Notes: generated from the sequence alone by a model not told the origin. DNA of 64,000 bases from Schmidtea polychroa (GCA_044892525.1 CM097885.1:5644001-5708000), one strand, 5' to 3'; numbered from the stretch's first letter, positions 1,585 to 64,000 are shown. Numbers and translations are program-made.

Positions 1585-1590
1585 GGTGTA

Positions 1591-1817
1591 TCAAATCAAA
1601 ACCTTTCTTTTACATTTATAGTCTATCAACCAATCAAAATCATACGGTATTAGTATAAATAAAACATCATATTTTAAATTATTGTAGAAATGTCTCATAA
1701 TTACATCATTAATTTTTAAATCATCTTTAAATTCATTCATTACGGAAATCTTGAAATCACAAGCATTCAAATTCAAACATTCTGTGTCAACAATATACTT
1801 ACTTAAACCAAATTTAT
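1591..1817 (-). pseudogene. 3' part of an ORF truncated at the junction with nested retroelement DNA
   Basis: Open frame ending 6 bp before the 1584 start codon; composition shifts abruptly to higher GC near 1817. Confidence 0.35.
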
Positions 1818-1894
1818 GGCTCCTAGCAACTCCCTAGAAACTGGAGCCTCCCCTTTTAGCTGTTCGCAATCTTTTTGCATGTCATCCTGTTGAA

Positions 1895-2191
1895 TCAGCT
1901 CTCCTGGATAAATATTTCATTCAGTTTGCTCTCGAGCGAGCGTACTTGTAGCTTCAGCGCTCGGATCTCGAGTTGATCTTGCTCCGCCTGGATCTGGAGT
2001 TGCGAGATGTGGGTCGTCCGTTTCTTCATCTCGGCTGGACTGAACCAAGTGCCTTCGAGTTCTCGGCACTTGATTTTTAACTTCTCGACCCTATTTCGAA
2101 AGTCCTCGGCTTGTTGCTGGGCCCGTTCGCGGTCCTTACGTAGGTTTTCGAGCAACTGGTACACTGAATGGAAACAATAATAAAATTCCAT
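1895..2191 (-). CDS. Coiled-coil ORF of nested (probably LTR/Gypsy) retroelement
   Basis: Heptad pattern with motif ELEGTWFSP; a degenerate paralog lies at ~31105-31350. Probably an exon of a longer spliced ORF. Confidence 0.55.
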   Translation of the reverse strand: MEFYYCFHSVYQLLENLRKDRERAQQQAEDFRNRVEKLKIKCRELEGTWFSPAEMKKRTTHISQLQIQAEQDQLEIRALKLQVRSLESKLNEIFIQES

Positions 2192-2476
2192 CGCTCGCTG
2201 TCATGTGCGTAAAGTTGGTTAGATTAATTGCATGAAATTAATAAGTGGATGATGAGAAAAGGGTCACCTCAATCATGAATACACCCCATCAGCTATAAAG
2301 TCCAAAATGTAATAGCAGAAAAAATAATTTATTATACTACGAAGATACAAGATAGACTATATTGTCAAGATTTAATGAACAGAAGAAAAATACAATTTGT
2401 TATACTACTACAAGGTAAAATATCACTGGATGAAATCAGTCAAAACCATTCCATTCAAGCCACGACTGTCGATGGG

Positions 2477-2857
2477 TTAGGCCAGGTTCTTACGGGGCCT
2501 TCCCCGTTTTCGTGGAGGGGTATTGGTCTCCTCCAACTCTTCAGGAGTCACCCCCAGTGTTTCGGCTTTGAGTTGGAGCTCGAGTCTCCTCAGCCGCCTT
2601 TGGGCCTCCACCACCTCGTCGGCCGCTCGATCGCGGGCTTCCCGGAGCACGTTGTTGGTGGGCTCTACTTTCACCCACGCTGGGGCATCGGGTTCTGGGC
2701 CACTTCGGATGACCGGACCATAATTATCGAGGTCCAACCCCCGGTTCCAGTCGTGTATCCGATACCATATGTACCGGGTCCGGAGCCGTGTTATCATCTG
2801 CCGGTATTCTACTTCGTCGGATTCGCTTGATTGGGACATTCTACCAAATAAACCCAA
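2477..2857 (-). CDS. ORF with C-terminal AT-hook/NLS-like motif (RKRGRPRK), adjacent to long LTR
   Basis: GC-richer open frame with coiled-coil and RGRP core, ~130 bp from the LTR end at 2974. Confidence 0.55.
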   Translation of the reverse strand: MGLFGRMSQSSESDEVEYRQMITRLRTRYIWYRIHDWNRGLDLDNYGPVIRSGPEPDAPAWVKVEPTNNVLREARDRAADEVVEAQRRLRRLELQLKAETLGVTPEELEETNTPPRKRGRPRKNLA

Positions 2858-2973
2858 TTAACAGGGATATTTGTGGGGGAATGATTGATTTTGTTAAATA
2901 GAGCGTATATTAATTTAAATCTCGGTTATTAATCCGTTATGTAATTTATCAATTAAAAATTTTCTTTTCCCAC

Positions 2974-5900: not shown

Positions 5901-7387
5901 TGAAAATACATACTATTCACTGGGGTTTTTTATACATGATTGAATCTATCCCATCCTTTACGCTTGTCGAAATTCGAGGTGTTATCATCGTAATTAGATC
6001 CGAGAAAATCCATACACCTTTATAAAAAAAATTTTTTTATTTACTAACGATGTTCGTCCAACGCCTAAGTGGAGAGGTCCCAACCGACTACATTAACTGA
6101 ATTGTAATTGCTGTGTTTAATTTGGGTCTGAGATCTACTCAATTATGATCCTAGTGTGAAGTAGTGTGTGAAATTTTTAATGTTGATTTTAAATGTGTAC
6201 TGCATTGGAACTCGGGAAGAATTCTTGCTTACACGGCCCCACTGTGACCGCTACAACAAGCCCTATTGTAATGTTGAGTCGAAACATCACTGTCGACCGA
6301 TAAATAAATATATGGAGCCATAGCGGAGGGGTTTTATCGACACAACTCCATGGTAGAACCATGAAGTGGCCGACCTCCGATGACCGAACAAAAAAAAATA
6401 TATACGAGATATTGCCTGTCTGCATGTGAAATCGTTATTTGAAAATTAATATTAAATGCAGGACTAATTAGAGACGCACTAAGACGCCGCTGATTAGTCA
6501 AAAAAAATAAAAACAAGTTAGATCTTGAGGGGATTAAAATCAATTAAAATCATTGACATTAAAATAATTTGCATTAATGAATCAAAACATAAATATACTA
6601 ATATCAAAAATGAGAATGATGAACATCAAAAAGGAAAAACTACTTACTATTAGTTTTCTGGACAAAATTTTTGTTCACAAAAATATTGGCATAAAAGGGA
6701 TTATTGTGACTGAAACGTGTCAGTATATATACCTATTTTGTACACGTGTATGTATTGATGCATTAAAACAAACTCGAATTCTTTTTATTCCAGAATTTTC
6801 TATTTTGCGATTTTGATATTTTTAACGGCAATTTTCGTGCCATAATTTTTGTTTTTATTTCTAAATTTCAAATTTTTAATTATTTTTCATTAATTTTACG
6901 TCCATGATGGATTTGGAACGGTTCCAGAACATTCTATATTACTTTTAATTTAATTTTTATTTTAATTGATGTTTTATGAATTTCTTTTTAAGAATTTTTT
7001 ATTTTTATTACTAATTTATTTATTTTTCTAACTTTTATTGTTTAAGGTAGCTTTTATGATGGTCATCGCCATTTTTATGGAATGTTCTGGGTTTTTCTGG
7101 AATCTTTTACTGTTTTTATCATCTTTTAAGTTATTCGAGTTTGCTTTTGGTAATTCTATGTTTATTTGGTTATTTTTGAGTTAGTTTTTTGCATAACTTC
7201 TTGCTTTTGTATAATTTTATTTAATTTGTGTGTTTATTATTTTTGTTGTTTTCTCCTTTAATTACCATTGTTTATTTGGTGTAGGTTTTAATATTTAACT
7301 ATACTTGGTGCTGTTTTACTTGCTGTGTACCTACACATTTCAGTCACAATTAGTATTTTGGGTCTAGAAGTCAGTTCTAGCCCAACA
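2974..7387 (-). mobile_element. Very long (~4.4 kb) LTR-like sequence nested in the Polinton
   Basis: Termini TGTTAG at 2974 and CCCAACA at 7387. ~6050-7387 is homologous to ~24680-26065 and homology stops exactly at TTCTAGCCCAACA. Internal AT-rich ~130-bp tandem repeats at 4250-5000. Confidence 0.65.
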
Positions 7388-7856
7388 CTACTGATTCAAC
7401 TTCTCTTAATTTCAATTCTTTTTTTGTTTCCATATCTTCTATTGCATTCTGCATTAAAAATAACATTAATGCCGGTTTTGTTAATTTGTGTCGAAGAACA
7501 TTGTCGACGAGCTTTTCCACTTTATTGAAAAATTCGGTGCACGAGTCATTTCCTTTTCGATATCTTAAAGCTGCGTCTAGATCCATGGCTAGGTTTTTCC
7601 TTGGCTCGAACGCTTTTCTTAATCTTTCTTCATAGCCTGAATAATCGCTCTGTACTTCTTCATATTTCTGGATCAACTCTACCGACAGAAAGGCCTTGGT
7701 AACAATTTCTTGAATTTCTTGCGGTTGTTGAGTGAGTTCGAAAAATCTCTTCAATTCCAAAATAAAAATTTCTAAATCACCATTTGGCAGCAATTGATTA
7801 GGTGGCTTGATATAGTTCTGGAGTCCTGGCGTGGTCGCCATGTTAGAAGAAGACAT
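7388..7856 (-). pseudogene. Gag-like ORF of another retroelement, cut by the long LTR at 7387
   Basis: 159-aa helical ORF resembling a retrotransposon Gag N-terminus; its last codons and stop come from the LTR terminus TGTTGGGCTAG. Confidence 0.45.
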
Positions 7857-8216
7857 AGTTTCACAGAAATCTTTATTCTCTATAAAAATCTAAGCGGAGC
7901 ACACAATCGTTATACTATTTATAGTACATTGAATTGCGTAATCTACAAAAGAGAGAATTATTAGTTTAAGTGATACTGTTGACACAGAAGACAATCATAC
8001 TTACTTAATTTAGTTATACAAGCATTCCCGCATCATTCAATAGATACGAAGGTCTAGTGACCTGGTTATGTAAGTAATTCGTTGGAAATTATTATATCAT
8101 CTTACAATCATCATTATTATTTACTTTCTATTAATGTTTTACTTTATATTAAAAGTCAACTATATATATATATATTAAAAACAAAATAATACAAACGTTT
8201 ATTATATACAAAACAT

Positions 8217-10419: not shown

Positions 10420-10422
10420 ACA

Positions 10423-10847
10423 ATGGGTGCTAATCCTTCATTGCCCGACATTAAATTTAATTTTAAATCTTCTTGTTGTAATGGAGAAGATTTGGACGAA
10501 CCCAGAGTGGCAAAATTAAAGAAAAGAGTTCCGAATTTGAAAAAAGAAACCCAGAAGTGGTTATCAGATCAGCTTGCGTACAGTTTGAACAAACCAATGC
10601 GGAAAAGATTTCCAACAAGAGCGTATAAAACATTTGGTATTGACGATTTATGGCAAATGGATTTGATGGAGATGATACCCTATTCGAAAATTAACAATGG
10701 GAATAAATATATTTTAACATGTATTAATGTATACAGCAGGTTTGCACGAGCAATACCAGTCAAGGCAAAATCTGCAGATGAAATGTCCAAGGCAATTAAT
10801 ATTTTATTTAAAGATGGACATCCTAATAACTTGCAAACAGATTTAGG

Positions 10848-10928
<81 letters not shown>

Positions 10929-11571
10929 CATTATTATTTTAGGTAAAGAATTCTACAATAGCAAAGTTACGCAAATCCTCGATAAACTGAAAATAAATCA
11001 CTACTCGGTACATTCTCAATACAAAGCTGCCCATGTTGAAAGATTTAATCGAACATTGAGAGATCGATTAAAGAAATTGTTCGTGCATCAAGGTAATAAA
11101 AAATGGGTAAATGCTTTACCGAAAATAATAACAAGTTATAATCATTCATCACATCGAGGACTGAATGGATTGAGACCGGTTGATATTACATCAAAAACAT
11201 CATTGACTTCTAAGAAATCTGTAAAAATTGCAAAACCTAAATATAAAGTCGGTGACCATGTTAGAATTAGTAAAATTAGTGCATCACCATTTATTAAAAA
11301 TTTTGATACAAATTGGAGTGATGAAGTCTTTGTAATTTCAAAAATAAATACTAAACAGAATCCTGTAATGTATGTCATCAAAGACAGTGATAATAATATT
11401 GTACAAGGGAAATTTTATGAGCAGGAATTACAAGTCATTCCTCCCCCAAAAGTATTTAGAATTCAAAAAATATTGAAAACTAAAACGGACGGTAAGGATA
11501 AACAATAATATGTCAAATGGCATGGTTATCAAAACCCGTCATGGATATCAGCAAAAGACCTAATAAAGTGA
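10423..11571 (+). pseudogene. Retroviral-like (rve) integrase with C-terminal chromodomain; one intron and one premature stop
   Basis: WQMDL, QTDLG|KEFYN and VERFNRTL give the D,D,E triad. GT-AG intron at 10847-10942 filled with (ATT)n. Chromodomain FRIQKILK...*YVKWHGY..SWI is interrupted by TAA at 11506-11508. Confidence 0.95.
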
Positions 11572-47346: not shown

Positions 47347-47934
47347 AATATATAAATAATCTTTCTATGATGTTTTAAACAGATCTTTGATCGTCTTCTT
47401 TTTAATTCAAAGGATCTTCTCATGAATATATAATTGTTAATATAAATGTTCTTTTCGATTGATTTTTTTATTTTATTCAATTTTTTAAAGCGATAGTTTA
47501 CTATGGTAAATTATCGCTATACAGATTTTTTAAAAAAAAAGAAAAAATCTTCTCCACGTGCAACACGCGGTGACTAAAATTGTAACTTCCATTGAATTAG
47601 GACAAACAATAAAAAAATAAAATATAACAATACATTACAATTAGTTTTGAATTAGCAAAACGAGAATTTTGAGCAAAGGTGAGAGGTGGTCTGCATAATT
47701 ATTTTGTTTTGAACAAATTTTGGTCGTTGGATAATTCAATTACGCAAGAGGAAAACCAGTATAAAAAGAAACGACATTCGTTGTCAAGTTAGTAGGTAGA
47801 TAGTGGCCTACGGGAACAATTACCCCCCCCCCCCGGGGGGGGGGGGGGGGGTTGTTCCCAAATTTTTATTACGCAATTGTTCCCAACTCATTTTTTTGCT
47901 TTCAGGGATTTTTGGTCCAAATTTTTTTTTATCA

Positions 47935-50900
47935 CACTATAGTGAGGGGGTCTCGATGGTCCTGGGATTTTCAATACAAATTAAATTTTTCTATACAAAA
48001 ATCCGACTACCACTAAAAAAGCCAAGGATTTTTCAGACTATAGTGAGGGGGTCTCGATGGTCCTGGGATTTTCAATACAAAAAATTTTTTTCAATACAAA
48101 AAGCCGGTCTACACTAAAAAAGCCAAGGAATTTTCAGACTATAGTGAGGGGGTCTCGATGGTCCTGGGATTTTCTATACAAAAATCCGACTACCACTAAA
48201 AAAGCCAAGGATTTTTCAGACTATAGTGAGGTGAGTCTCCTTGGTCCTGAGAAATAGGTGTTCTACACTAAAAAACGTGGTAATTTAAGGTCTCGGGATA
48301 TTTTCAATACAAAAAGCTGGTCTACACTAAAAAGCATGGTAATTTAAGGTCTCAGGATATTTTCAATACAAATAGGTGGTCTACACTAAAAAAGCCAAGG
48401 ATTTTTCAGACTATAGTGAGGTGAGTCTCCTTGGTCCTGAGAAATAGGTGGTCTACACTAAAAAAACGTGGTAATTTAAGGTCTCAGGATATTTTCAATA
48501 CAAAAAGCTGGTCTACACTAAAAAAGCATGGTAATTTAAGGTCTCATGATATTTTCAATACAAAAATCCGACTATCAATAAAAAGGCATGGTAATTTAAG
48601 GTCTCAGGATATTTTCAATACAAAAACTGGTCTTCACTAAAAAAGCATGGTAATTTAAGGTCTTAGGATATTTTCAATACAAAAGCTGATCTTCAATAAA
48701 AAAGCATGGTAATTTAAGGTCTCATGATATTTTCAATACAAAAATCCGACTATCAATAAAAAAGCATGGTAATTTAAGGTCTCATGATATTTTCAATACA
48801 AAAAGGCGGTCTCACTAAAAAAGCATGGTAATTTAAGGTCTCAGGATATTTTCAATACAAAAATCCGACTATCAATAAAAAAGCATGGATTTTTCGAATT
48901 AAATTAAGGTGGGTCTCCTTGGTCCTGAGAAATATGTGGTCTACACTAAAAAACGTGGTAAATTTTTTAAAATTAAAGTAAATTATGGTTCTAAAAATTG
49001 AATTACAGTAAATTATGGACTAAGATTTTTAAATTACAGTAAATTATGGTCCAAATTTTTCAATTAAAGTAAATTATGGTTCAAATTTTTCAAATAAGGT
49101 AATTATGGTCCTAAAAAATTAAATTACAGTAAATTATGGTTCTAAAAAATTATATTACAGTAAATTATGGTCTAAAAAAAAATTGAATTACAGTTAATTA
49201 TGGTCCAAATTTTAAAATTACAGTAAATTATGGTCCAAATTTTTGAATTAAAGTAAATTATGGGCTTAGATTTTTCAATTAAAGTAATGAATGGGCTCAA
49301 ATAACTAAATTAAGGTTCAAAATTTTAAATTAAAGTAAATAATGGTCCTAAAAAATTAAATTAAAGTTAATTATGGTCCTAAAAAATTAAATTAAGGTTC
49401 ATATTTTCGAATTAAAGTAATTAATATGCTCAGATTTTTCAATTAAAGTAAATAATGGCTCAAATTTTTCAAATTACAGTAAATTAAGGTTCTAAAATAT
49501 TAAATTACAGTAAATTATGGTTCTAAAAAAATTAAATTACAGTAAATTATGGTTCTAAAAAATTAAATTAAAGTAAATTATGGTCCAAATTTAAAAATTA
49601 AGTAATCAATGGTAAAAAAATTAAATTAAAGTAATAATATTTAAATAAGTAATGTAATATGTAAATTAAAGTAAGATTTTTAAATTTATTAACAAAAAGT
49701 TGAAATAATAGAAGGTGTTTGAGAATTGAAATTTTTTTAATGAAAATTTTCAATGGTAATTTTTAATGGAAATTTTTATGGAATATTTTTCAATGATAAT
49801 TTTAGATGGAAATTTTTAAGATAATTTTTAATGAAAATTTTAATGAAATATTTTTCAAAGACAAATTTTATTAATAATTCAACAACAAACTAACAACTTA
49901 GTACCAACAACCAGTAACTTACGAACATGTAGTTACAACCAGATACCTACAACTAGATACTAACAACTAGATACTAAGTACTAACAACCAACAACAACTA
50001 GGTACTAAGCATTATTAACCAACTACTAAGTACTAACAACCAACCACCTACCAAGTACTAACAACCAACTATCAACCAGATACCAAGTACCAACAATCAA
50101 CTAACAACACATAAAAATAATTGCAATTAAATACAAAATATTCTTCATCAAATACAATATCTTCTTATCAAAATCTAAAAAATCTACCAACTACTTACAA
50201 CCTACCAAGTACTTACAACCACCTACCTATTAACTAGTTACAACCAGCTAACAACCAGTTACCTGATACTAAGTACCTACAACCACCTACTAAGTACCAA
50301 CAACCAGCTAAAAACTAACAACTAGATACCAAGTACTCACAACCAACAACAACCAGGTACTAAGCATTATTAACCAACTACTAAGTACTAACAACCAACC
50401 ACCTACCAAGTACTAACAACCAACATCAACCAGGTACTAAGCATTAATTACCAACAACCACCTACCTATTAACTAGTTACAACCAGCTAACAACCAGTTA
50501 CCTGATACTAAGTACCTACAACCAACTACTAAGTACCAACAACCAGCAAAAAACTAACAACTAGATACCAAGTACTCACAACCAACAACAACCAGGTACT
50601 AAGCATTATTAACCAACTACTAAGTACCTACAACCAACCACCTACCAAGTACTAACAACCAACATCAACCAACTACTAAGTACCTACAACCAACCACCTA
50701 CCAAGTACTAACAACCAACTAACAACCAGATACCAAGTACCAACAACCAACCAACTAGGTACTAGATACTAAGTACTAACTACCAGCTAACAACTAGCTA
50801 CCAAGTACTAACAACCAACAACCAGCTAACAACTAACTACCAGATACCTACTACTTACAACCAACAACTAAGTACTAACAACCAGCTAACAACTAGATAC

Positions 50901-51100
50901 CAGGTACTAAGCATTATCAACCAAGTACTAACAACCAACAACAACCAACTACTAAGCATTAATTACCTACAACTAGTTACTAACAACTAGATACCAAGTA
51001 CATACAACCAATAACTAAGCATTATCAACCAAGTACTAACAACTAGATAACAAGTACTAAGCACTGTCAACTAGATACCAAACACTTACAACCAGATGAC
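47935..51100. repeat. Stacked tandem arrays in the left arm (mirrored at ~61250-64000)
   Basis: ~50-60-bp GGTCTC-containing units at 47935-48960, ~30-bp AAATTACAGTAAATTATGG units at 48960-49620, and a strand-biased AAC/AGTACT array at 49880-51100. Confidence 0.9.
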
Positions 51101-51430
51101 CACATGAAATTATTGGTTAAATATGAACATAAGGGTTATAATTAGTTGTTAAGTAAATTATGGTGTAAAATTAAGAAATAAAGAATAATTAGGTAAATTA
51201 AGGATAAGTAAATTAAAGTTAAAAATTTTAAATTAAAGAAAACAATGGTTCAAAATTTAAAATTAAGTATCCAATGGTTCAAATTTTAAATTAAAGCTAA
51301 AGTAAGATTTTTAAATTTATTATCAAAAGATTGAATAACCACCAACTTTTTTGAGAAATGTAATTTATAATGAAAATTTTAATGGAAATTTTAATGGAAT
51401 AATAATAATAATAATTATAATAATAATAAT

Positions 51431-51490
<60 letters not shown>

Positions 51491-51895
51491 TCAACAATCA
51501 GATTCCAACAACGATCATGTATTTTTAACTAGGTGCTGACAAATAAGTACCAAATACTTTCAACGTGATACCACGTACTAACTCTCAAACAACCAGATAC
51601 TTACAACTAACTACTTACAATCAACTAAATATTTTTTATTGTATTTTATGAAATGCTTTTTAAAATTAATAATTTTAATTACAATCAGTAGAAAAACCTT
51701 TTCAAATTTAACAAAAAATGTTGATTTTCATCAAAAAAACCACAACTCATCACCACGTGAAATTCAAAATAATTTAAATGAAAGACTAATGAATTCTAAT
51801 TTACAAAACATTCTTCTTTTAATTGATAACTTATTATCGCAATGTAAAAATCGCATTCAATAAATACTTATTGTTGATCAGTTTTATTATATATA

Positions 51896-54800
51896 CTCTG
51901 AGTTTATCCGACAGGATGTTTTGAACCCCTAAGGGTACAGGTCGTAAGGGTACAGGTCGTAAGGGTACTGGTCGTAAGGGTACTGGTCGTAAGGGTATTA
52001 GTCGTAGGGGTATTGATCACTCTCAATCCCCACCTACTCATTAACTAGCTACTAAGTACTAACCACTAGGTTTCAAACAACAACTACTAACAACCACCAT
52101 CAAAACCCATCGAGAAATTAACAAATATCAACCTACAACTATATAACAATCAGTAAACAACACTGTACCAACTACCAAATACAAGATACCAACAACTTAG
52201 TACCAACAATCAACTAACAACACATAAAAATAATAGCAATTAAATACAAATTATTCTTCATCGCATACACTATTTTCTTATCAAAATCTAAAAAGTCAAC
52301 CAACTACTTACAACCAACAACTATGTACTAACAAATTGATCTTTAAAAGAAAAATACTCATCACTTGAAAAATTAGATGGAAAATTAATTGAACTCAAGG
52401 CACTTTTAAGATATTTGAACTCAAGGCATCAATAACTTGGTAAAAATTGATTAAATTATTGTAAAAATTTAAATTATTCAAAATATACTAAATTAAAAAA
52501 ATATAATTAATGGACAAGAAAGAACTTTAAATTCTAGTCATTGATCATTCAAGTTAATATGAATCAACTAAGATAATAAATTAATAAGAATTTTGAAATA
52601 AGATCTAGTAGATAATTGATTTAGATTGAATAAATTAATTTAAATAAAATAAAATTTAATTATTTTTTTAAAAGTAATACATGTACTCAAATTGATTGAC
52701 TGATTTCTCAATATATTCAAAAAATCAGTATAAATTCATTACAATTATCAAAGTCAACAATCTACAATAAAAATAATTATCATTAAATTCCAAAAGAGAC
52801 TAGATAACTAATGATAACATCTAACAAACCAGTAAATTCATTTAAATGACAATAATTGGTATATCCAAGTGAATTCTCGAATAAAATCATCTAAAAAGAA
52901 TCATTTTCCCCTAAATATATCAATATTTAAAGATTGGTATTTTAATGATAAGTACTTGTTAAAGATCATATATTCACCTCAAACTAACAAGATTCCTTAA
53001 AATCCTCTTAAATGACTACATTTCTATCCTTAATTCATATTATTACAAATATCATCTAAAAAGCATCAAATTTCATTGAAATAACACTATCTTTAAAGAT
53101 TGATATTTTAAAGATAAGTACTCATAAAAGACTATATATTCACCTCAAACTAACAAGATTCCTTAAAATCTCTTAAATGACTATATTTCTACCCTTAATC
53201 CATATTATTACAAATATTTCACTAAAATCATCTAAAAAGCATCAAATTTCCCTGAAATAACTACCTTTAAAGATTAGTATTTTATCGATAAATATCCTTA
53301 AAAGGTTATATATTTACCTCAGACTAATAAGATTGCTTAAAATCCCCGTTAAATGACTTTAATTCCTATTATCACGAATATTATAAAACATGTAAAATAA
53401 TTTGGTCATTAACCCTAAATAATTGATAAAATCTAATGATAAAACCGGTTATAATTAACTTTTTGTTAATCACTGTACTCGAAATTTAAAATAAATTTAT
53501 CCATTCAATAAAATATATTTCTTCAAATGGTCAACTTTTGTCGTTGTCCACCTAAATAAAGATAAAAATAATTTAAAGTTGATATCAATCCCATTTATCT
53601 GTAAAGTTTTCATCGTCAAAACCAAGTAAATCGACATTGTTCTACAACATAAATCTAAATTAATATACAATGAATTAATCACAATCTAATAAAACGATAT
53701 AATTATTATTGATACATAACTGACTAATGTATTGACATTTCCCTTAAAACAATGATATTTTACCAACATCACCATTAAAAAAATCATATATTCCCATCTT
53801 AACCCATGTCTCATTAAATTTAACCGACTATATTCCCATCTTAACCCATTCCTCATTAAAGTCAATCGACTATATTTCCCTTACAATGATATATTCCCAT
53901 CTTAACCCATGTCTCATTAAATTTAACCGACTATATTCCCATCTTAACCCATTCCTCATTAAAGTCAATCGACTATATCTCCCTTACAATGATATATTCC
54001 CATCTTATCCGATCTCTCAGCAAATATTTCTACCCTTTTAAACATCTAACCGAATATATCCTTCAATTCTACCCACTTGAATCCTCCTTTAATTCAATTC
54101 AGTCTTAAAATCTTTAAAGAACTTCAAAAATATGACTTAATTGTTATAGACACCAAATATTCTTCCATTGAAATAATTTAGTAGCTATGTAGTAAGAGTT
54201 CACTAAAAGATCAAAATTTACTAAAATTTTCTACAAATATTTACCATCAAATACTGGAGATGATATATATTGGTTGATCATAATTCTTCATCGATTCAGC
54301 CAATCATTTTCAAGCAATAACAGCAAACTAAATTTCTGTATATCCTACAATAATTATCAAGTAAATTTAAAGTCATTGATAAATATTCTTAGAAAATTAT
54401 TGAAAAAAATTATCTAGTCAAATATATTACAAAGTTGTCATCAAAAATTTATTCTATCACTTAATTATTAACCTAATTGTCAATGAAATTAATTTTTATT
54501 TAAAAACTATTCAATAAAATACAACTAATTATCAAGAAATTAACTAAATTTATCAATTAAATTTATCACCATTAAAACTTTTAATCAGTCAACATGAAAT
54601 TCTTAGAAAATTATTCAATATCCTCATAAAAATTTATCCTACCACTTCATTATTGTAAAATCTCTAATTATTAACCTCATTGAAAATAATTTTTATTTAA
54701 AATTAAAAAAAAACAAGTCAATAAAAATACATCCAATTATCAAGAAATTAATTAAATTTATCTTAGAATTAGCATTAAATTATTAAATATTCATTCAATA

Positions 54801-55129
54801 AACATGAAATTTGCAAAAATGTTAGAAATCCATGAAAATGATAGATATCTACAAAAATTACGCATATTCACAAAAAAGTACGGAAATTCATGAAAATAAT
54901 AGAAAATTACAAAAAATGATAGAAATTCATAAAAATGATAGAAATTTACTTGAATAAAACCATCAACTCTAAAAAATTATCAATACCTTAAACATCAAAT
55001 TTGTCTAAATTCAAATAAAAACATTAAATACCTTTACGACTAATACCCTTGCGACATGTTGAATGTGAGTAGTACCCTTGTGAGCAATACCCATAGGGGG
55101 ACAGAATATTTTGTCGGATAAGCTCAGAG
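51896..55129. mobile_element. Putative TA-flanked TIR element inside the left arm (mirror copy 57217-60450)
   Basis: TA-CTCTGAGTTTATCCGACA ... TGTCGGATAAGCTCAGAG-TA with subterminal AAGGGTA repeats; no ORF. Confidence 0.55.
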
Positions 55130-58100
55130 TATATATTAATTAACTCATTCTTCATTGAATTAGTCAAATTATCGTAAATTTCGATAAAAAATCTAAAGTG
55201 GTAAGCAATGTAAAGAGAAATATTCTTTAAATTTTGATAAAATTAACAATGAAGGTGGTAAGAATCTTCATTAAAGTGAGGAAATTATTCATTACTCGAT
55301 TCAAATGGGTGAAAATAATTGGTAGAATAATCCATTAATGGAGGTAGATAATGAGAAGTGGCATAGATAAGAAGAAGGTGGATAAGAATGGAAGTATATT
55401 AATTGAATTTATTTAAAATTATTTCATAAAATTCATAAATTTAATAAAAAAAAAACTTTTAAAACAAATATTTGTGGGGATGTTTTAAGTGAATAATTAA
55501 TAAAAATCGGCGGAATATAATTGATTAAATATCGGGGGGTGGGGGTTATAAGTGAATAATTAGTGGAAAATAAAGGGGATATAAGTGAATAATTAATGGA
55601 GAATCGGGGGGAATATAGGAGATTAAATAGTGGGATAATGAGAATCGGTGGAATATAAGTGAGAAGGATATGTAATTTAAATTATTTTATTACGTAACAA
55701 GCCGTGACTAGTTTATTACATAACAAGCTGTGAATAGTATTTTATTGAAAATTATTGATATCGTCTTTTTTTTTTTTTAATTTTTGAATAGGTACTTTAA
55801 TACCTTAATAATTTAAATGTTTTGATTTACACTAAATAATTTCTAAATCAATTACCCTTTTCAATCAATATAAGTTAATATTCAAATATAAGTCTTCGAA
55901 AATATAAATTTTATAAGTAAAGCTTTTTTAAATAAATTTAAATAAGAAATTAATTTATTACCAGTTATATACTTTAAAACTTATTTATTGAATAAAACAT
56001 TAGAAATAAAAAAGTTTTTGTTGTATAAGTACTTGCAATAATAGCTATATATTATTAAATTTACGATTCTACACTAAATATTTCGAAACGAATATCATAA
56101 TATGAATTATATTACTCCTTTCAATAAAAATAAGATAAATATTCAAATAAATGACTTATAAAATACAATTAAAATTAAATTCTTTACACTAAATTTAAAA
56201 ATATAAGTTTTATTAGAAAATGTGAATAAAAAATTGAATTATTAACAGTTATAGACTTTTTAAACTTAATGATGGAATTAGGTAATAGAAAGTAAATATT
56301 TTTTTTAAAAAAAGACCTTTAATATTGTAGCTATTTATTATTAAATTTACTATTTTACACTAAATATTTCGATTTAGAAAACAATCATCACAATATTAAA
56401 TGTGATACTTCAATCAAAATAAGTTAATACTCAAATATATGTCTTATAAAATACAATTAAAATTAAATACTTCACTAATTTTAAGTAAAGTTTTTTAAAT
56501 TCTCAAATAAATGTTAACAAGATATTAATTTATTAATAATTATAGATTTTTTAAACTTATTATTGAAATTAAACAATAGAATGATATTCAAAATATATAC
56601 AATTTTAAAATATAATTAAAATTAAAATTATAAACTAGTCACGGCTTGTTACGTAATAAAATAATTTAAATTACATATCCTTCTCACTTATATTCCACCG
56701 ATTCTCATTATCCCACTATTTAATCTCCTATATTCCCCCCGATTCTCCATTAATTATTCACTTATATCCCCTTTATTTTCCACTAATTATTCACTTATAA
56801 CCCCCACCCCCCGATATTTAATCAATTATATTCCGCCGATTTTTATTAATTATTCACTTAAAACATCCCCACAAATATTTGTTTTAAAAGTTTTTTTTTT
56901 ATTAAATTTATGAATTTTATGAAATAATTTTAAATAAATTCAATTAATATACTTCCATTCTTATCCACCTTCTTCTTATCTATGCCACTTCTCATTATCT
57001 ACCTCCATTAATGGATTATTCTACCAATTATTTTCACCCATTTGAATCGAGTAATGAATAATTTCCTCACTTTAATGAAGATTCTTACCACCTTCATTGT
57101 TAATTTTATCAAAATTTAAAGAATATTTCTCTTTACATTGCTTACCACTTTAGATTTTTTATCGAAATTTACGATAATTTGACTAATTCAATGAAGAATG
57201 AGTTAATTAATATATACTCTGAGCTTATCCGACAAAATATTCTGTCCCCCTATGGGTATTGCTCACAAGGGTACTACTCACATTCAACATGTCGCAAGGG
57301 TATTAGTCGTAAAGGTATTTAATGTTTTTATTTGAATTTAGACAAATTTGATGTTTAAGGTATTGATAATTTTTTAGAGTTGATGGTTTTATTCAAGTAA
57401 ATTTCTATCATTTTTATGAATTTCTATCATTTTTTGTAATTTTCTATTATTTTCATGAATTTCCGTACTTTTTTGTGAATATGCGTAATTTTTGTAGATA
57501 TCTATCATTTTCATGGATTTCTAACATTTTTGCAAATTTCATGTTTATTGAATGAATATTTAATAATTTAATGCTAATTCTAAGATAAATTTAATTAATT
57601 TCTTGATAATTGGATGTATTTTTATTGACTTGTTTTTTTTTAATTTTAAATAAAAATTATTTTCAATGAGGTTAATAATTAGAGATTTTACAATAATGAA
57701 GTGGTAGGATAAATTTTTATGAGGATATTGAATAATTTTCTAAGAATTTCATGTTGACTGATTAAAAGTTTTAATGGTGATAAATTTAATTGATAAATTT
57801 AGTTAATTTCTTGATAATTAGTTGTATTTTATTGAATAGTTTTTAAATAAAAATTAATTTCATTGACAATTAGGTTAATAATTAAGTGATAGAATAAATT
57901 TTTGATGACAACTTTGTAATATATTTGACTAGATAATTTTTTTCAATAATTTTCTAAGAATATTTATCAATGACTTTAAATTTACTTGATAATTATTGTA
58001 GGATATACAGAAATTTAGTTTGCTGTTATTGCTTGAAAATGATTGGCTGAATCGATGAAGAATTATGATCAACCAATATATATCATCTCCAGTATTTGAT

Positions 58101-60855
58101 GGTAAATATTTGTAGAAAATTTTAGTAAATTTTGATCTTTTAGTGAACTCTTACTACATAGCTACTAAATTATTTCAATGGAAGAATATTTGGTGTCTAT
58201 AACAATTAAGTCATATTTTTGAAGTTCTTTAAAGATTTTAAGACTGAATTGAATTAAAGGAGGATTCAAGTGGGTAGAATTGAAGGATATATTCGGTTAG
58301 ATGTTTAAAAGGGTAGAAATATTTGCTGAGAGATCGGATAAGATGGGAATATATCATTGTAAGGGAGATATAGTCGATTGACTTTAATGAGGAATGGGTT
58401 AAGATGGGAATATAGTCGGTTAAATTTAATGAGACATGGGTTAAGATGGGAATATATCATTGTAAGGGAAATATAGTCGATTGACTTTAATGAGGAATGG
58501 GTTAAGATGGGAATATAGTCGGTTAAATTTAATGAGACATGGGTTAAGATGGGAATATATGATTTTTTTAATGGTGATGTTGGTAAAATATCATTGTTTT
58601 AAGGGAAATGTCAATACATTAGTCAGTTATGTATCAATAATAATTATATCGTTTTATTAGATTGTGATTAATTCATTGTATATTAATTTAGATTTATGTT
58701 GTAGAACAATGTCGATTTACTTGGTTTTGACGATGAAAACTTTACAGATAAATGGGATTGATATCAACTTTAAATTATTTTTATCTTTATTTAGGTGGAC
58801 AACGACAAAAGTTGACCATTTGAAGAAATATATTTTATTGAATGGATAAATTTATTTTAAATTTCGAGTACAGTGATTAACAAAAAGTTAATTATAACCG
58901 GTTTTATCATTAGATTTTATCAATTATTTAGGGTTAATGACCAAATTATTTTACATGTTTTATAATATTCGTGATAATAGGAATTAAAGTCATTTAACGG
59001 GGATTTTAAGCAATCTTATTAGTCTGAGGTAAATATATAACCTTTTAAGGATATTTATCGATAAAATACTAATCTTTAAAGGTAGTTATTTCAGGGAAAT
59101 TTGATGCTTTTTAGATGATTTTAGTGAAATATTTGTAATAATATGGATTAAGGGTAGAAATATAGTCATTTAAGAGATTTTAAGGAATCTTGTTAGTTTG
59201 AGGTGAATATATAGTCTTTTATGAGTACTTATCTTTAAAATATCAATCTTTAAAGATAGTGTTATTTCAATGAAATTTGATGCTTTTTAGATGATATTTG
59301 TAATAATATGAATTAAGGATAGAAATGTAGTCATTTAAGAGGATTTTAAGGAATCTTGTTAGTTTGAGGTGAATATATGATCTTTAACAAGTACTTATCA
59401 TTAAAATACCAATCTTTAAATATTGATATATTTAGGGGAAAATGATTCTTTTTAGATGATTTTATTCGAGAATTCACTTGGATATACCAATTATTGTCAT
59501 TTAAATGAATTTACTGGTTTGTTAGATGTTATCATTAGTTATCTAGTCTCTTTTGGAATTTAATGATAATTATTTTTATTGTAGATTGTTGACTTTGATA
59601 ATTGTAATGAATTTATACTGATTTTTTGAATATATTGAGAAATCAGTCAATCAATTTGAGTACATGTATTACTTTTAAAAAAATAATTAAATTTTATTTT
59701 ATTTAAATTAATTTATTCAATCTAAATCAATTATCTACTAGATCTTATTTCAAAATTCTTATTAATTTATTATCTTAGTTGATTCATATTAACTTGAATG
59801 ATCAATGACTAGAATTTAAAGTTCTTTCTTGTCCATTAATTATATTTTTTTAATTTAGTATATTTTGAATAATTTAAATTTTTACAATAATTTAATCAAT
59901 TTTTACCAAGTTATTGATGCCTTGAGTTCAAATATCTTAAAAGTGCCTTGAGTTCAATTAATTTTCCATCTAATTTTTCAAGTGATGAGTATTTTTCTTT
60001 TAAAGATCAATTTGTTAGTACATAGTTGTTGGTTGTAAGTAGTTGGTTGACTTTTTAGATTTTGATAAGAAAATAGTGTATGCGATGAAGAATAATTTGT
60101 ATTTAATTGCTATTATTTTTATGTGTTGTTAGTTGATTGTTGGTACTAAGTTGTTGGTATCTTGTATTTGGTAGTTGGTACAGTGTTGTTTACTGATTGT
60201 TATATAGTTGTAGGTTGATATTTGTTAATTTCTCGATGGGTTTTGATGGTGGTTGTTAGTAGTTGTTGTTTGAAACCTAGTGGTTAGTACTTAGTAGCTA
60301 GTTAATGAGTAGGTGGGGATTGAGAGTGATCAATACCCCTACGACTAATACCCTTACGACCAGTACCCTTACGACCAGTACCCTTACGACCTGTACCCTT
60401 ACGACCTGTACCCTTAGGGGTTCAAAACATCCTGTCGGATAAACTCAGAGTATATATAATAAAACTGATCAACAATAAGTATTTATTGAATGCGATTTTT
60501 ACATTGCGATAATAAGTTATCAATTAAAAGAAGAATGTTTTGTAAATTAGAATTCATTAGTCTTTCATTTAAATTATTTTGAATTTCACGTGGTGATGAG
60601 TTGTGGTTTTTTTGATGAAAATCAACATTTTTTGTTAAATTTGAAAAGGTTTTTCTACTGATTGTAATTAAAATTATTAATTTTAAAAAGCATTTCATAA
60701 AATACAATAAAAAATATTTAGTTGATTGTAAGTAGTTAGTTGTAAGTATCTGGTTGTTTGAGAGTTAGTACGTGGTATCACGTTGAAAGTATTTGGTACT
60801 TATTTGTCAGCACCTAGTTAAAAATACATGATCGTTGTTGGAATCTGATTGTTGA

Positions 60856-60915
<60 letters not shown>

Positions 60916-63900
60916 ATTATTATTATTATAATTATTATTATTATTATTCCATTAAAATTTCCATTAAAATTTTCATTATAAATTACATTTCTCAAAAAAG
61001 TTGGTGGTTATTCAATCTTTTGATAATAAATTTAAAAATCTTACTTTAGCTTTAATTTAAAATTTGAACCATTGGATACTTAATTTTAAATTTTGAACCA
61101 TTGTTTTCTTTAATTTAAAATTTTTAACTTTAATTTACTTATCCTTAATTTACCTAATTATTCTTTATTTCTTAATTTTACACCATAATTTACTTAACAA
61201 CTAATTATAACCCTTATGTTCATATTTAACCAATAATTTCATGTGGTCATCTGGTTGTAAGTGTTTGGTATCTAGTTGACAGTGCTTAGTACTTGTTATC
61301 TAGTTGTTAGTACTTGGTTGATAATGCTTAGTTATTGGTTGTATGTACTTGGTATCTAGTTGTTAGTAACTAGTTGTAGGTAATTAATGCTTAGTAGTTG
61401 GTTGTTGTTGGTTGTTAGTACTTGGTTGATAATGCTTAGTACCTGGTATCTAGTTGTTAGCTGGTTGTTAGTACTTAGTTGTTGGTTGTAAGTAGTAGGT
61501 ATCTGGTAGTTAGTTGTTAGCTGGTTGTTGGTTGTTAGTACTTGGTAGCTAGTTGTTAGCTGGTAGTTAGTACTTAGTATCTAGTACCTAGTTGGTTGGT
61601 TGTTGGTACTTGGTATCTGGTTGTTAGTTGGTTGTTAGTACTTGGTAGGTGGTTGGTTGTAGGTACTTAGTAGTTGGTTGATGTTGGTTGTTAGTACTTG
61701 GTAGGTGGTTGGTTGTAGGTACTTAGTAGTTGGTTAATAATGCTTAGTACCTGGTTGTTGTTGGTTGTGAGTACTTGGTATCTAGTTGTTAGTTTTTTGC
61801 TGGTTGTTGGTACTTAGTAGTTGGTTGTAGGTACTTAGTATCAGGTAACTGGTTGTTAGCTGGTTGTAACTAGTTAATAGGTAGGTGGTTGTTGGTAATT
61901 AATGCTTAGTACCTGGTTGATGTTGGTTGTTAGTACTTGGTAGGTGGTTGGTTGTTAGTACTTAGTAGTTGGTTAATAATGCTTAGTACCTGGTTGTTGT
62001 TGGTTGTGAGTACTTGGTATCTAGTTGTTAGTTTTTAGCTGGTTGTTGGTACTTAGTAGGTGGTTGTAGGTACTTAGTATCAGGTAACTGGTTGTTAGCT
62101 GGTTGTAACTAGTTAATAGGTAGGTGGTTGTAAGTACTTGGTAGGTTGTAAGTAGTTGGTAGATTTTTTAGATTTTGATAAGAAGATATTGTATTTGATG
62201 AAGAATATTTTGTATTTAATTGCAATTATTTTTATGTGTTGTTAGTTGATTGTTGGTACTTGGTATCTGGTTGATAGTTGGTTGTTAGTACTTGGTAGGT
62301 GGTTGGTTGTTAGTACTTAGTAGTTGGTTAATAATGCTTAGTACCTAGTTGTTGTTGGTTGTTAGTACTTAGTATCTAGTTGTTAGTATCTAGTTGTAGG
62401 TATCTGGTTGTAACTACATGTTCGTAAGTTACTGGTTGTTGGTACTAAGTTGTTAGTTTGTTGTTGAATTATTAATAAAATTTGTCTTTGAAAAATATTT
62501 CATTAAAATTTTCATTAAAAATTATCTTAAAAATTTCCATCTAAAATTATCATTGAAAAATATTCCATAAAAATTTCCATTAAAAATTACCATTGAAAAT
62601 TTTCATTAAAAAAATTTCAATTCTCAAACACCTTCTATTATTTCAACTTTTTGTTAATAAATTTAAAAATCTTACTTTAATTTACATATTACATTACTTA
62701 TTTAAATATTATTACTTTAATTTAATTTTTTTACCATTGATTACTTAATTTTTAAATTTGGACCATAATTTACTTTAATTTAATTTTTTAGAACCATAAT
62801 TTACTGTAATTTAATTTTTTTAGAACCATAATTTACTGTAATTTAATATTTTAGAACCTTAATTTACTGTAATTTGAAAAATTTGAGCCATTATTTACTT
62901 TAATTGAAAAATCTGAGCATATTAATTACTTTAATTCGAAAATATGAACCTTAATTTAATTTTTTAGGACCATAATTAACTTTAATTTAATTTTTTAGGA
63001 CCATTATTTACTTTAATTTAAAATTTTGAACCTTAATTTAGTTATTTGAGCCCATTCATTACTTTAATTGAAAAATCTAAGCCCATAATTTACTTTAATT
63101 CAAAAATTTGGACCATAATTTACTGTAATTTTAAAATTTGGACCATAATTAACTGTAATTCAATTTTTTTTTAGACCATAATTTACTGTAATATAATTTT
63201 TTAGAACCATAATTTACTGTAATTTAATTTTTTAGGACCATAATTACCTTATTTGAAAAATTTGAACCATAATTTACTTTAATTGAAAAATTTGGACCAT
63301 AATTTACTGTAATTTAAAAATCTTAGTCCATAATTTACTGTAATTCAATTTTTAGAACCATAATTTACTTTAATTTTAAAAAATTTACCACGTTTTTTAG
63401 TGTAGACCACATATTTCTCAGGACCAAGGAGACCCACCTTAATTTAATTCGAAAAATCCATGCTTTTTTATTGATAGTCGGATTTTTGTATTGAAAATAT
63501 CCTGAGACCTTAAATTACCATGCTTTTTTAGTGAGACCGCCTTTTTGTATTGAAAATATCATGAGACCTTAAATTACCATGCTTTTTTATTGATAGTCGG
63601 ATTTTTGTATTGAAAATATCATGAGACCTTAAATTACCATGCTTTTTTATTGAAGATCAGCTTTTGTATTGAAAATATCCTAAGACCTTAAATTACCATG
63701 CTTTTTTAGTGAAGACCAGTTTTTGTATTGAAAATATCCTGAGACCTTAAATTACCATGCCTTTTTATTGATAGTCGGATTTTTGTATTGAAAATATCAT
63801 GAGACCTTAAATTACCATGCTTTTTTAGTGTAGACCAGCTTTTTGTATTGAAAATATCCTGAGACCTTAAATTACCACGTTTTTTTAGTGTAGACCACCT

Positions 63901-64000
63901 ATTTCTCAGGACCAAGGAGACTCACCTCACTATAGTCTGAAAAATCCTTGGCTTTTTTAGTGTAGACCACCTATTTGTATTGAAAATATCCTGAGACCTT

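Follow-up and report, generated by a model that had tools for sequence, protein, structure and literature searches.

A gene-less palindromic element with Polinton ends in Schmidtea polychroa and a probable fold-back step in its replication

Introduction

The terminal repeats of adenovirus genomes would be kept identical by panhandle pairing of the displaced strand, and defective adenovirus genomes carry long inverted repetitions of one genome end. These mirror-doubled molecules are transient and occur in infected cells. The panhandle model is set out in PMC11886824, and panhandle pairing of displaced strands, which is invoked to restore the homology of the ends, is described as the standard yet unproven model for protein-primed replicons (PMC11886824, PMC4046053). 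Polintons, or Mavericks, are defined in PMC5499653 as elements that encode a retrovirus-like integrase together with a protein-primed polymerase. For intact vertebrate Mavericks, PMC8097293 gives a mean length of 16,862 ± 1,678 bp, 6-bp duplications and the end motifs (AGT)2//(ACT)2 or (AG)3//(CT)3.

Here, we describe a gene-less palindrome of 16,760 bp, denoted as E0, which starts at position 47791 of a 64,000-nt window of the S. polychroa genome (GCA_044892525.1, CM097885.1:5644001-5708000) and runs beyond the window end to position 64550. E0 resembles autonomous Polintons or Mavericks in its 6-bp duplication, its AG...CT termini of the AGT type and its length of ~17 kb, and its 33-nt ends and subterminal hairpin are the same as those of coding Polinton copies in its own genome. 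Unlike Polintons, it has no gene at all, its inverted repeats measure 7,926 bp compared with the 46-1,447 bp given for intact vertebrate Mavericks in PMC8097293, and homology to the coding Polinton copies is confined to ~2.1 kb per arm. With Drosophila FB, Galileo and Tetris, as described in PMC3573991 and PMC4079207, E0 shares very long arms built of tandem repeats, a non-coding middle, non-autonomy and chimeras between subfamilies. However, its duplication is 6 bp and not the 7-10 bp given in these two sources, the element that shares its ends is a Polinton and not a Mutator- or P-type transposon, and its arms are ~8 kb long, whereas 0.3-1.2 kb is reported for Galileo. As in defective adenovirus genomes, a protein-primed linear replicon is associated with mirror-image doublings of one end, but the E0 family is integrated, heritable, amplified ~330-fold and split into subfamilies, and one of its lineages has lost all genes and gained ~5.8 kb of unrelated DNA per arm. 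We found no printed description of a gene-less palindromic element of the Polinton family; the identity and anatomy of E0, one member of a family of ~330, are reported below.

Results

The left boundary of E0 is sharp, with 39 full matches at other loci beginning at query positions 83-92, where position 47791 is query position 92. E0 begins with AGTAGGTAGATAGTGGCCTAC, the first base of which is 47791, and ends with ...GTAGGCCACTATCTACCTACT, the last base of which, read in the sequence beyond the window end, is 64550. Outside the two termini, the left and right flanks are unrelated to each other, so the mirror symmetry ends at the termini of E0. The first-pass annotation of the window had predicted a right end at ~64555, a total length of ~16.8 kb and an end of the symmetry at that point, all of which agree closely with what we found. 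Its prediction that CAAGTT, the left target-site duplication (47785-47790), would recur on the right was borne out with an offset: the hexamer lies at 64554-64559, after three extra bases, ACT, at 64551-64553. E0 therefore carries the 6-bp target-site duplication that characterizes the Polinton/Maverick superfamily and its non-autonomous derivatives. Read from the right end, the extra bases are AGT and give AGTAGTAGG; this one case would fit a slip in the jump-back of protein-primed initiation. Other copies with different duplications had also been anticipated, and perfect 6-bp duplications which differ between loci were present in 32 of 36 sampled elements. The stretch 47791-64550 is thus a real inserted mobile element.

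The left arm (47791-55716, plus strand) is 7,926 bp long and is a 99.92% mirror of the right arm (minus strand), which occupies 56630-64000 in the window and reaches 64550 outside it. Within the window, 48346-55716 and 56630-64000 are 100% complementary over 7,371 nt and lie 913 nt apart, in keeping with the earlier claim of arms of at least 7.37 kb around a 913-bp spacer. Over the whole arms (E0 coordinates 1-7926 against 16760-8840), there are one mismatch and one gap opening, the latter in a C/G homopolymer tract that reads C12G17 on the left and C13G11 on the right. The inverted repeats make up 95% of the element, and tandem arrays account for ~4.2 kb of each 7.9-kb arm, as the sum of non-overlapping intervals. 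The subterminal tandem arrays identified with TRF (47928-48888, plus strand) consist of 101/82-bp units followed by ten 59/60-bp units, and these arrays together with the terminus are the part of the arm common to E0 and the coding Polintons. The inner arm (48959-55633, plus strand) alternates between tandem arrays, again from TRF, and unique AT-rich DNA; its arrays comprise a 31-bp unit repeated 21 times, C/A-rich units of 14-239 bp at 49935-51045, (AAT)31, and 166-bp and 103-bp units. The innermost ~5.8 kb of the arm, from ~49890, is missing in coding copies.

The central spacer (55717-56629) is 913 bp long, non-palindromic and non-coding. One half of it, 56167-56616, is strongly conserved: across 10 copies whose arms are ~10% different, its mean agreement with E0 was 0.92-0.98 in most 50-nt windows and 0.85-0.89 in two. 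A frame of 44-58 codons recurs in this half. Considering that the frame lacks an ATG and that the copies differ by indels of 1, 2 and 5 nt, the conserved half is non-coding, and across copies no conserved ORF was found in the spacer. We suspect that this half has a cis-acting role. Of the 35 other sampled elements, 25 have a spacer homologous to that of E0 near their centre, with an identity of 76-99.6% and in either orientation, and none of the 25 has genes.

The claimed absence of credible ORFs was upheld, as the longest stop-to-stop frame of E0 is 105 codons. A Pfam search with five E0 frames gave no match at the cut-off, and no Rfam match was found in E0. When the eight proteins of a coding relative were compared with E0 by tblastn, none of them matched, nor were remnants of these eight found in the inner arm; the 1,433-aa polymerase of the coding copy had no match, and no rve integrase was found, so E0 has neither of the two enzymes of an autonomous Polinton. 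The same eight proteins did not match any of 26 gene-less copies.

The conserved 33-nt terminus AGTAGGTAGATAGTGGCCTACGGGAACAATTAC (47791-47823, plus strand) opens with the 4-nt reiteration GTAG GTAG. Genome-wide, it occurs 323 times in forward and 343 times in reverse orientation with at most two mismatches, whereas a reversed control gave none, and the family therefore has about 330 elements in the S. polychroa genome. It overlaps a subterminal hairpin (47812-47859, plus strand) composed of GGGAACAA-TTA-C12 / G17-TTGTTCCC, for which folding as single-stranded DNA gives -25 to -29.5 kcal/mol (z = -4.75, equalled by 0 of 200 shuffles). We sampled 36 + 4 of the ~330 elements, on one contig, with exact 33-nt ends and mostly of 10-19 kb; the 36 comprise 26 gene-less copies and 10 with genes. 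The first 32 nt of the terminus and the hairpin motif were found at every one of the 72 sampled ends, 20 of which belong to gene-carrying copies, with a C run of 7-18 and a G run of 2-20 that are unequal between the two ends of a single copy. In this sample, limited to end pairs 10-19 kb apart, 23 of the 26 gene-less copies measure 15.5-18.5 kb and the coding copies 16.6-18.1 kb. Four of four further size outliers, outside the 36, also have clean duplications, and copies of 1.36 kb (1,362 bp), 11.7 kb and 22.6 kb are integrated; as the 1,362-bp and 22.6-kb relatives have clean duplications, size is no absolute bar to integration. Eight elements at separate loci are palindromes from end to end, seven with perfect and different 6-bp duplications and E0 with its copy offset by three bases.

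All 10 gene-carrying copies have a protein-primed polymerase, and nine of them also have an integrase, a packaging ATPase and a capsid-like gene. The integrase was identified by rve (PF00665, E 1.3e-8) plus rve_3/chromo, and the A32-type ATPase by Pox_A32 (E 6.6e-7). Relatives of the 1,433-aa polymerase ORF at up to 61% identity bear PF03175, and a 408-aa ORF resembles DJR-like capsid clusters with an Atlas score of 0.98, which we take as a lead only. The proteins are mostly 100% identical from one coding copy to another. The coding copies align to E0 in the first ~460 bp (85-96%) and at positions 1,000-2,100 (79-87%) and nowhere else, and E0 has the same TIR ends as these autonomous elements of the same genome. 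With the 33-nt ends, the hairpin and the 6-bp duplication shared by coding elements, the earlier reading of E0 as a coding-free, non-autonomous Polinton gains support. The coding Polintons of the same genome that share its ends likely provide for the replication and integration of E0 in trans, a role for their polymerase and integrase that we infer from the common ends and the duplication length.

The arms of the palindromes evolve in concert, which is new here. Among variable columns, 779 of 783 are mirrored in four copies and 1,152 of 1,172 in 10 palindromes, and the distance between the arms of one copy is 0.013-0.23%, compared with a median of 10-12% between copies. Since palindromes ~10% divergent have a homologous spacer and collinear arms, the palindrome-plus-spacer layout is older than this divergence. 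Between E19 and E22, all 38 mirrored substitutions fall in a single block at the terminus, which occurs at each of the two ends, 16 kb from one another, and outside the block there are no mirrored and six unmirrored point differences. The closest sibling pairs differ at two and six points, too few for a conversion rate. E0-type copies are at least 99.97% alike, and each point variant among their arms is private to a single arm. In E2, each arm is of E0 type over its outer 6.5 kb and of another type over its inner 1.5 kb, with an arm identity of 99.97%. This mirrored mosaic could alternatively stem from one replacement of a contiguous centre, if its two breakpoints were symmetric by chance.

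In nine copies, the part next to the spacer is mirrored at 97% identity or more and the outer arms are dissimilar. For three of four hybrids checked (E24, E7 and E5), the foreign outer parts correspond to other sampled subfamilies at 96.7-99.6%. While chimeric Galileo copies are reported to have non-matching flanks, perfect duplications are kept in 11 of the 13 copies of the E0 family that are hybrids or have diverged arms, so these copies either took shape before they integrated or are products of non-crossover conversion. Mirror-doubling has also affected halves of the coding element more than once, as the polymerase side is present twice in E29 and the integrase/ATPase/capsid side is doubled in B1, which lacks the polymerase. 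E21 and E32 lie inside palindromes of host DNA that reach at least 9.6 kb and at least 4.7 kb past the element, and as such, in-situ processes are able to create or lengthen mirror symmetry. E12 is the product of a chromosomal rearrangement, with non-matching duplications and a right flank in common with E11.

Discussion

We consider it fairly probable that E0 is a helper-dependent, fold-back satellite with Polinton ends, which would be copied in trans and whose arms would be equalised on a snapped-back strand. Synthesis by the helper polymerase would begin at one terminus and displace one strand over its full length, and this single strand would fold arm on arm, with the spacer as a 913-nt loop, so that a duplex origin is restored at the tip. 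Mismatched outer parts would arise when subfamilies that replicate together recombine or when the template is switched from one to another. An unpaired 3' tail would then be trimmed and refilled from the 5' arm as template, and the product would be a perfect palindrome whose breakpoints are mirrored and whose ends are correct; the helper integrase would insert this duplex with a 6-bp duplication. E0 might also interfere with its helper and be packaged, as the first-pass annotation suggested. Judging from the sequence patterns, one arm is likely re-copied from the other, during protein-primed replication, on a strand that has snapped back, and their identity likely records a fold-back step in the replication of such elements. 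Several observations count against this reading. The chromosomal fold-backs at E21 and E32 show another source of mirror symmetry, the nearest coding copies are only 85-96% identical to E0 over its first 500 bp and are thus candidate helpers at most, and hybrids with very different outer arms (E24 and E33) are integrated with clean duplications, so re-copying is no obligatory step in every transposition.

Arm-to-arm conversion is established for large genomic palindromes, and E0 could be a non-autonomous Polinton-ended transposon whose arms were equalised after insertion by chromosomal gene conversion or ectopic recombination, with no fold-back intermediate. The extension of mirror symmetry into host DNA at E21 and E32 and the rearranged E12, with its mismatched duplications, fit this explanation, which we nevertheless regard as unlikely. 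Point differences between the closest siblings are never mirrored (zero against six and zero against two), E0-type point variants are all private to one arm, and the mirrored differences are long blocks, one of them at both termini. Moreover, hybrids with outer arms 75-90% alike have remained unconverted, and the real chromosomal fold-backs copied host flank and lost the direct duplication, whereas the end-to-end palindromes retain exact ends and direct duplications. It is less probable still that the arms are not maintained at all, each subfamily being one copy-back accident that is perfect because it is young. In E29 and B1, the coding element has indeed been doubled afresh, with opposite halves in the two copies, and the near-identity of E0-type copies marks them as extremely young, but independent events would yield different centres, and the ~10%-divergent palindromes share theirs, along with collinear arms. 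The perfect palindromes are also mirrored mosaics of each other.

It seems very improbable that E0 belongs to the classical foldback transposons of the Mutator or P superfamilies and is Polinton-like at its tips only. E0 does have the build described in PMC4079207 and PMC3573991, in which a non-coding middle domain is flanked by long inverted arms full of tandem repeats. On the other hand, 32 of 36 elements have a 6-bp duplication and not the 7 bp given for Galileo or the 8-10 bp given for the Mutator-like Tetris (PMC3573991, PMC4079207), the conserved terminus and hairpin occur at every sampled end, including those of polymerase- and integrase-carrying elements, and derivatives with Polinton genes (E29 and B1) have the same build. 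We give hardly any credence to an artefact of assembly or of read fold-back, or to a host inverted duplication. Such an origin would agree with arms that are 100% identical in a window which stops within one of them, with the mirror-image flanks of two sampled copies (E21 and E32) and with public-run contigs that do not span the arms. Against it, the symmetry of E0 ends exactly at the family termini, beside unrelated flanks and a duplicated hexamer, and the eight separate-locus palindromes, up to 10% apart, are each internally mirrored.

Taken all together, the helper-dependent, fold-back reading may tentatively be extended, although we doubt that every part would hold: the palindromes might be inherited satellites of a polintovirus that is still active, with mosaics that are the first natural record of snap-back and with ~17-kb lengths that result from packaging in the helper capsid. 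If this is true, the snap-back, or panhandle, intermediate, long postulated, would be recorded for a eukaryotic virus-like element, and the same intermediate would both yield mirror-doubled half-genomes, whether of the polymerase side, the capsid/integrase side or gene-less, and mend the ends.

Structure and insertion site of the palindromic element

The palindromic element, denoted as E0, lies at window positions 47791-64550 in a source genome of 781 Mb with four chromosome-scale contigs, and its right arm was completed by reading 4 kb beyond the window end (L009). Inside the window, 48346-55716 and 56630-64000 (7,371 nt each) are 100% complementary and 913 nt apart, verifying the two arms and spacer of the first-pass annotation. 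E0 is 16,760 bp in total and its arms reach both extreme ends, where coordinates 1-7926 align with 16760-8840 at 99.92% identity with one mismatch and one gap opening. The single gap sits in a C/G homopolymer tract, which is C12G17 in the left arm and C13G11 in the right. The left end reads AGTAGGTAGATAGTGGCCTAC from 47791, and the right end, predicted at about 64555, was observed as ...GTAGGCCACTATCTACCTACT at 64550. The mirror symmetry of E0 halts at these termini, as had been expected, and the two flanks are mutually unrelated. The anticipated CAAGTT duplication is present at 47785-47790 and 64554-64559, but its right copy is offset from the element end by three bases (ACT).

The proposed absence of a credible gene held in every search. 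The longest open frame has 105 codons, Pfam gave none at cut-off for the five longest frames (best E 0.012 and 0.066), nothing matched in Rfam, and tblastn of eight Polinton proteins against E0 returned zero matches. A small gene hidden in the spacer or inner arm was also rejected, as the sole recurring frame (44-58 codons) lacks an ATG and carries indels of 1, 2 and 5 nt between copies. The spacer half at 56167-56616 is non-coding and is conserved far better than the arms. Inverted repeat accounts for 95% of an E0-type element, and each 7.9-kb arm consists of tandem arrays over about 4.2 kb (summed intervals). We are highly confident that E0 is a real transposon: palindromic, non-autonomous and bounded by Polinton ends.

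The left flank of E0 (47640-47790) is an older dispersed repeat with 39 other matches at 73-84% identity. When an empty site was sought in five left-flank paralogues, homology stopped at or just before the insertion point and none reached the E0 right flank. Contigs of public sequencing runs break at the repeat and do not span the arms. The left-flank contig of run X16 ends at 47791, while the right-flank contigs of four of four runs begin to fit at L009:553, preceded by 22-141 letters not fitting the element. Because 47791 and L009:553 would be the last and first bases common to a filled and an empty allele, an empty allele is possible. As such, the break points hint at an insertion polymorphism, which run X15, with zero depth over 47705-47785, contradicts on the left flank. 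Elsewhere in the window, a 362-codon frame at 10420-11508 (+) matches the rve integrase core below threshold (E 1.4e-5; 25.7 bits, where 32.6 are required) and may belong to another integrase-bearing mobile element upstream.

Family size and target duplications

The first 210 bp of E0 matched 39 or more other genomic places at 95-99% identity. These matches start between 47782 and 47791 (query positions 83 to 92), and many form +/- pairs 16-18 kb apart. The 33-nt terminus, allowing up to two mismatches, occurs at 323 forward and 343 reverse sites, whereas its reversed control gave 0 sites in the same genome search. Therefore, the family comprises about 330 elements, and its genome share is estimated at roughly 5-6 Mb (~330 elements of ~17 kb). 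The sample consisted of E0, five paired copies from the 210-bp search and 30 copies taken in position order from the terminus listing. These 30 were limited to contig 1, exact ends and end pairs 10-19 kb apart, and seven pairs outside this range were set aside.

Perfect 6-bp duplications, with a hexamer varying by locus, flank 32 of the 36 elements, so that further copies with different duplications exist as suggested. The four exceptions are E0 with its ACT offset, E12 with mismatched hexamers, E21 and E32. Considering that E12 has its right flank in common with E11, we regard E12 as a chromosomal rearrangement. Duplications were perfect in the four of the set-aside size outliers that were fetched. 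One of these, a 1,362-bp mini-element (L091, C1:148181060-148182421), has family ends, a clean CATAGG duplication and solely terminal and array sequence; therefore, very small derivatives integrate too.

Coding relatives and shared ends

Long ORFs are present in 10 of the 36 sampled elements. The coding copy E3 carries an rve integrase (PF00665, E 1.3e-8) with a trailing rve_3/chromo segment, an ATPase of the Pox_A32 type (E 6.6e-7) and a 1,433-aa ORF. A 171-aa TBP-domain ORF (PF00352, E 5.4e-16; L015:5973-6488 (+), the same as L084:8374-8889), present in E3 and other coding copies, is 100% conserved in nine full coding copies, is doubled in one 21.4-kb copy, and is not what a Polinton usually carries. 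For the 1,433-aa ORF, a PDB sequence search returned 0 matches at E <= 1, and PHROGs and Pfam named no family, giving weak endonuclease VII matches only. Among its best 120 relatives (32-61% identity), most have PF03175 (protein-primed family-B polymerase), PF02945 or both, and it is solely because relatives carry PF03175 that we identify the ORF as a polymerase. The weak endonuclease VII-like segment lies at residues ~680-730 of this ORF (L014:2611-6912 (-); Pfam E 0.0017, PHROGs 0.0014-0.0031), and many relatives have PF02945 beside PF03175.

A 408-aa ORF is similar to clusters from arthropods that have a DJR-like capsid domain (Atlas score 0.98), which makes its product a candidate capsid-like protein, as a lead and not as proof. 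All eight proteins occur in nine coding copies, mostly at 100% amino-acid identity. Two adjoining ORFs of 338 and 344 aa (L084:3953-4969 and 4962-5996 (-)) are paralogues at 47% identity with no family match, and the 338-aa gene is present twice in E31. A 128-aa ORF (L015:4810-5196 (-)) matches adenovirus protein X / mu core protein (PF05829, E 2.7e-6, 19 residues), and its product may be a basic DNA-condensing peptide. With lengths of 16.6-18.1 kb, a 6-bp duplication and AGT-type ends, the coding copies are like Mavericks as described in passages of a published account (PMC8097293).

The first 32 nt and a subterminal hairpin are common to 72 of 72 sampled ends, including the 20 that belong to gene-carrying copies. 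The hairpin has the form GGGAACAA-TTA-Cn/Gn-TTGTTCCC and folds at -25 to -29.5 kcal/mol (z = -4.75). Across all sampled ends, its C-run is 7-18 and its G-run 2-20 bases (window 47823-47851), and the runs are unequal at the two ends of one copy, reflecting either real hypervariability or homopolymer read error. Homology between E0 and the coding copies is limited to the first ~460 bp (85-96%) and subterminal arrays to ~2.1 kb (79-87%). Coding copies have no counterpart of the spacer or of the inner ~5.8 kb of either arm.

Two coding elements are themselves doubled. In E29 (18.1 kb, with a clean duplication), the polymerase side occurs as two copies in inverted orientation together with the capsid-like gene, and the integrase, ATPase and TBP-domain ORF are missing. 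Its counterpart B1, a size outlier of 22.6 kb (L094-L096, C1:67839002-67861599; clean duplication TTCATT), has the opposite side, with integrase, ATPase, TBP and capsid, mirror-doubled and is without polymerase. This Polinton is generally prone to mirror-doubling.

Concerted evolution of the arms

In a first alignment of eight arms from four palindromes, arms within a copy differ by 1-12 substitutions, while between copies the count rises to as many as ~709 (E0 vs E4, 90.1% identity). Variants were mirrored, that is, the same on both arms of one copy, in 779 of 783 variable ungapped columns and 139 of 158 indel events. With ten palindromes (20 arms), 1,152 of 1,172 variable columns were mirrored, and the distance within a copy was 0.013-0.23% compared with a median of 10-12% to other copies. 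In 25 of the 35 other sampled elements, every one of these 25 gene-less, a homologue of the E0 spacer occupies a central or near-central position (76-99.6% identity). From sequence comparison, the palindrome-plus-spacer layout is thus evidently old. Considering the spacer homologues and mirrored columns together, palindromes diverged by 10% descend from a palindrome whose arms were homogenised many times.

We compared the E0 arm with both strands of every sampled element in a tile map, in which the perfect palindromes are mirrored mosaics of each other. In E2, the outer 6.5 kb is E0-type (~100%) and the inner 1.5 kb is 81-93% identical on both sides, with an arm-to-arm identity of 99.97%. E19 and E22 are 0.49% apart, and 38 of 38 mirrored substitutions fall in a single terminal block (alignment columns 177-583) that each copy carries at its two termini, separated by 16 kb; the remaining ~8 kb has 0 mirrored and 6 unmirrored differences. 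Likewise, E0 and E1 show two unmirrored differences and no mirrored one. E0-type arms (those of E0, E1 and E33, the right one of E24 and the outer part of E2) are at least 99.97% identical, each point variant being private to one arm. E2, E24 and E33 are recombinant derivatives that arose from these young arms in this brief period, and E2 is re-mirrored.

Among the 26 gene-less copies, eight are end-to-end mirror images at >=99.7% and four more are nearly so. In nine, a mirror segment of >=97% always adjoins the spacer and the outer parts differ, a pattern that E12, E27 and E33 follow at 93-95%. The sole departure from this centre-outward pattern is E35 (10.1 kb), whose mirror is broken for ~1 kb between spacer and outer arm. 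The mirror identity of E26 is just 79%, and the terminal repeat of E16 is just 774 bp. Foreign outer parts match other sampled subfamilies in three of four hybrids checked: the left of E24 matches E28 (99.2% over 4.6 kb), the two of E7 match E4 and E24/E28 (99.4-99.6%), and the right of E5 matches E4 (96.7% over 3.2 kb), while the best matches for E33 reach only 96.3-98.3%. Perfect duplications are kept by 11 of 13 hybrid or diverged-arm copies, in contrast with chimeric Galileo elements, whose flanks do not match in the passages describing them (PMC3573991). Hybrids with clean duplications rule out that the second arm is re-made at every transposition.

Possible fold-backs in the host chromosome

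Symmetry running past the ends, named beforehand as refuting, is absent at E0 and present at two other copies. Around E21 (C1:116199592-116214261; flanks L080/L081), the flanks are reverse-complementary at 99.68% for at least 9.6 kb, the limit of the sequence fetched. Around E32 (C1:218504182-218521662; flanks L082/L083), the mirror symmetry extends 4.7 kb into host DNA at 99.3%. These host palindromes may have arisen when the element nucleated a fold-back duplication of the chromosome, or they may be fold-backs introduced in assembly.

A model for the maintenance of the palindromes

Judging from sequence comparisons, a helper-dependent fold-back satellite mechanism is the leading explanation and more likely than not. 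Replication would start by protein priming at one end and displace a full-length strand, which would snap back so that arm pairs with arm and the spacer forms the loop. An unmatched 3' tail would be trimmed and refilled with the 5' arm as template, the refilled strand would be copied to duplex, and a helper integrase would insert the duplex with a 6-bp duplication. A single crossover or template switch between differing palindromes would yield centre-symmetric, outer-asymmetric hybrids, and if the outer part of one arm then served as template for its partner, the result would be mirrored mosaics with correct termini, such as E2 and E19/E22. The proposed mechanism is the panhandle model put forward for adenovirus and PRD1. 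That model has also been invoked for restoring end homology and has, in the passages of the sources cited, no direct evidence so far (PMC11886824, PMC4046053). The extra AGT at the right end of E0, as one case, would fit a jump-back slip at initiation.

The main rival, that arms are kept alike by arm-to-arm conversion in the chromosome, is a serious but distinctly less probable explanation. Copying of that kind may have left the E21 and E32 palindromes, which show that arm copying in place does not stop at the terminus. The end-to-end palindromes have exact ends and direct duplications, and copying on a linear molecule outside the chromosome therefore accounts for them more readily. A one-off copy-back without maintenance would also generate a palindrome, as in E29 and B1, yet it is improbable given the repeated homogenisation indicated by the diverged copies.

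E0 has the architecture of foldback transposons, which in the parts of the literature cited are thought to arise repeatedly by transposase loss and inverted-repeat growth, mostly in the Mutator superfamily (PMC4079207), but its duplication length and ends are those of Polintons, and a classical foldback element is very improbable. Least probable of all is an artefact; locus-specific duplications surround most sampled copies.

Lengths bear on the possible packaging of these elements. Coding copies span 16,586-18,124 bp (median 17,580), and the median for gene-less copies is 16,908 bp, with 23 of 26 within 15.5-18.5 kb in this size-restricted sample, a narrow range despite more than 100 indel events between subfamilies. 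Such clustering would fit a packaging constraint, although the size-restricted sample and the outliers weaken this reading. Elements of 1,362 bp, 11.7 kb, 21.4 kb and 22.6 kb integrated cleanly, which rules out a strict size limit; integration is under no such constraint.

Significance for Polinton biology

Full-text searches of openly available papers listed no account of a palindromic Polinton derivative that lacks genes. Butterfly polintons are described, in part of a 2026 preprint, with ~2-kb gene-bearing inverted repeats (10.1101/2025.02.07.637071), and the passages available from a giant-transposon review do not mention non-autonomous Mavericks (PMC6431247). The foldback architecture, hitherto known mainly from Mutator/P-type elements, has arisen in the Polinton superfamily too.

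Large palindromes of the E0 kind are candidate sources of rearrangement, as the host palindromes at E21 and E32 suggest. To our knowledge, the replication mode of Polintons/Mavericks has never been shown. This large, young and diversified family is a natural experiment on that question: it reveals that mirrored differences come as blocks, including both termini, that recent point changes are unmirrored, and that the in-chromosome outcome of the same process copies host flank. Taken all together, the question of Polinton replication is now open to testing in this animal.
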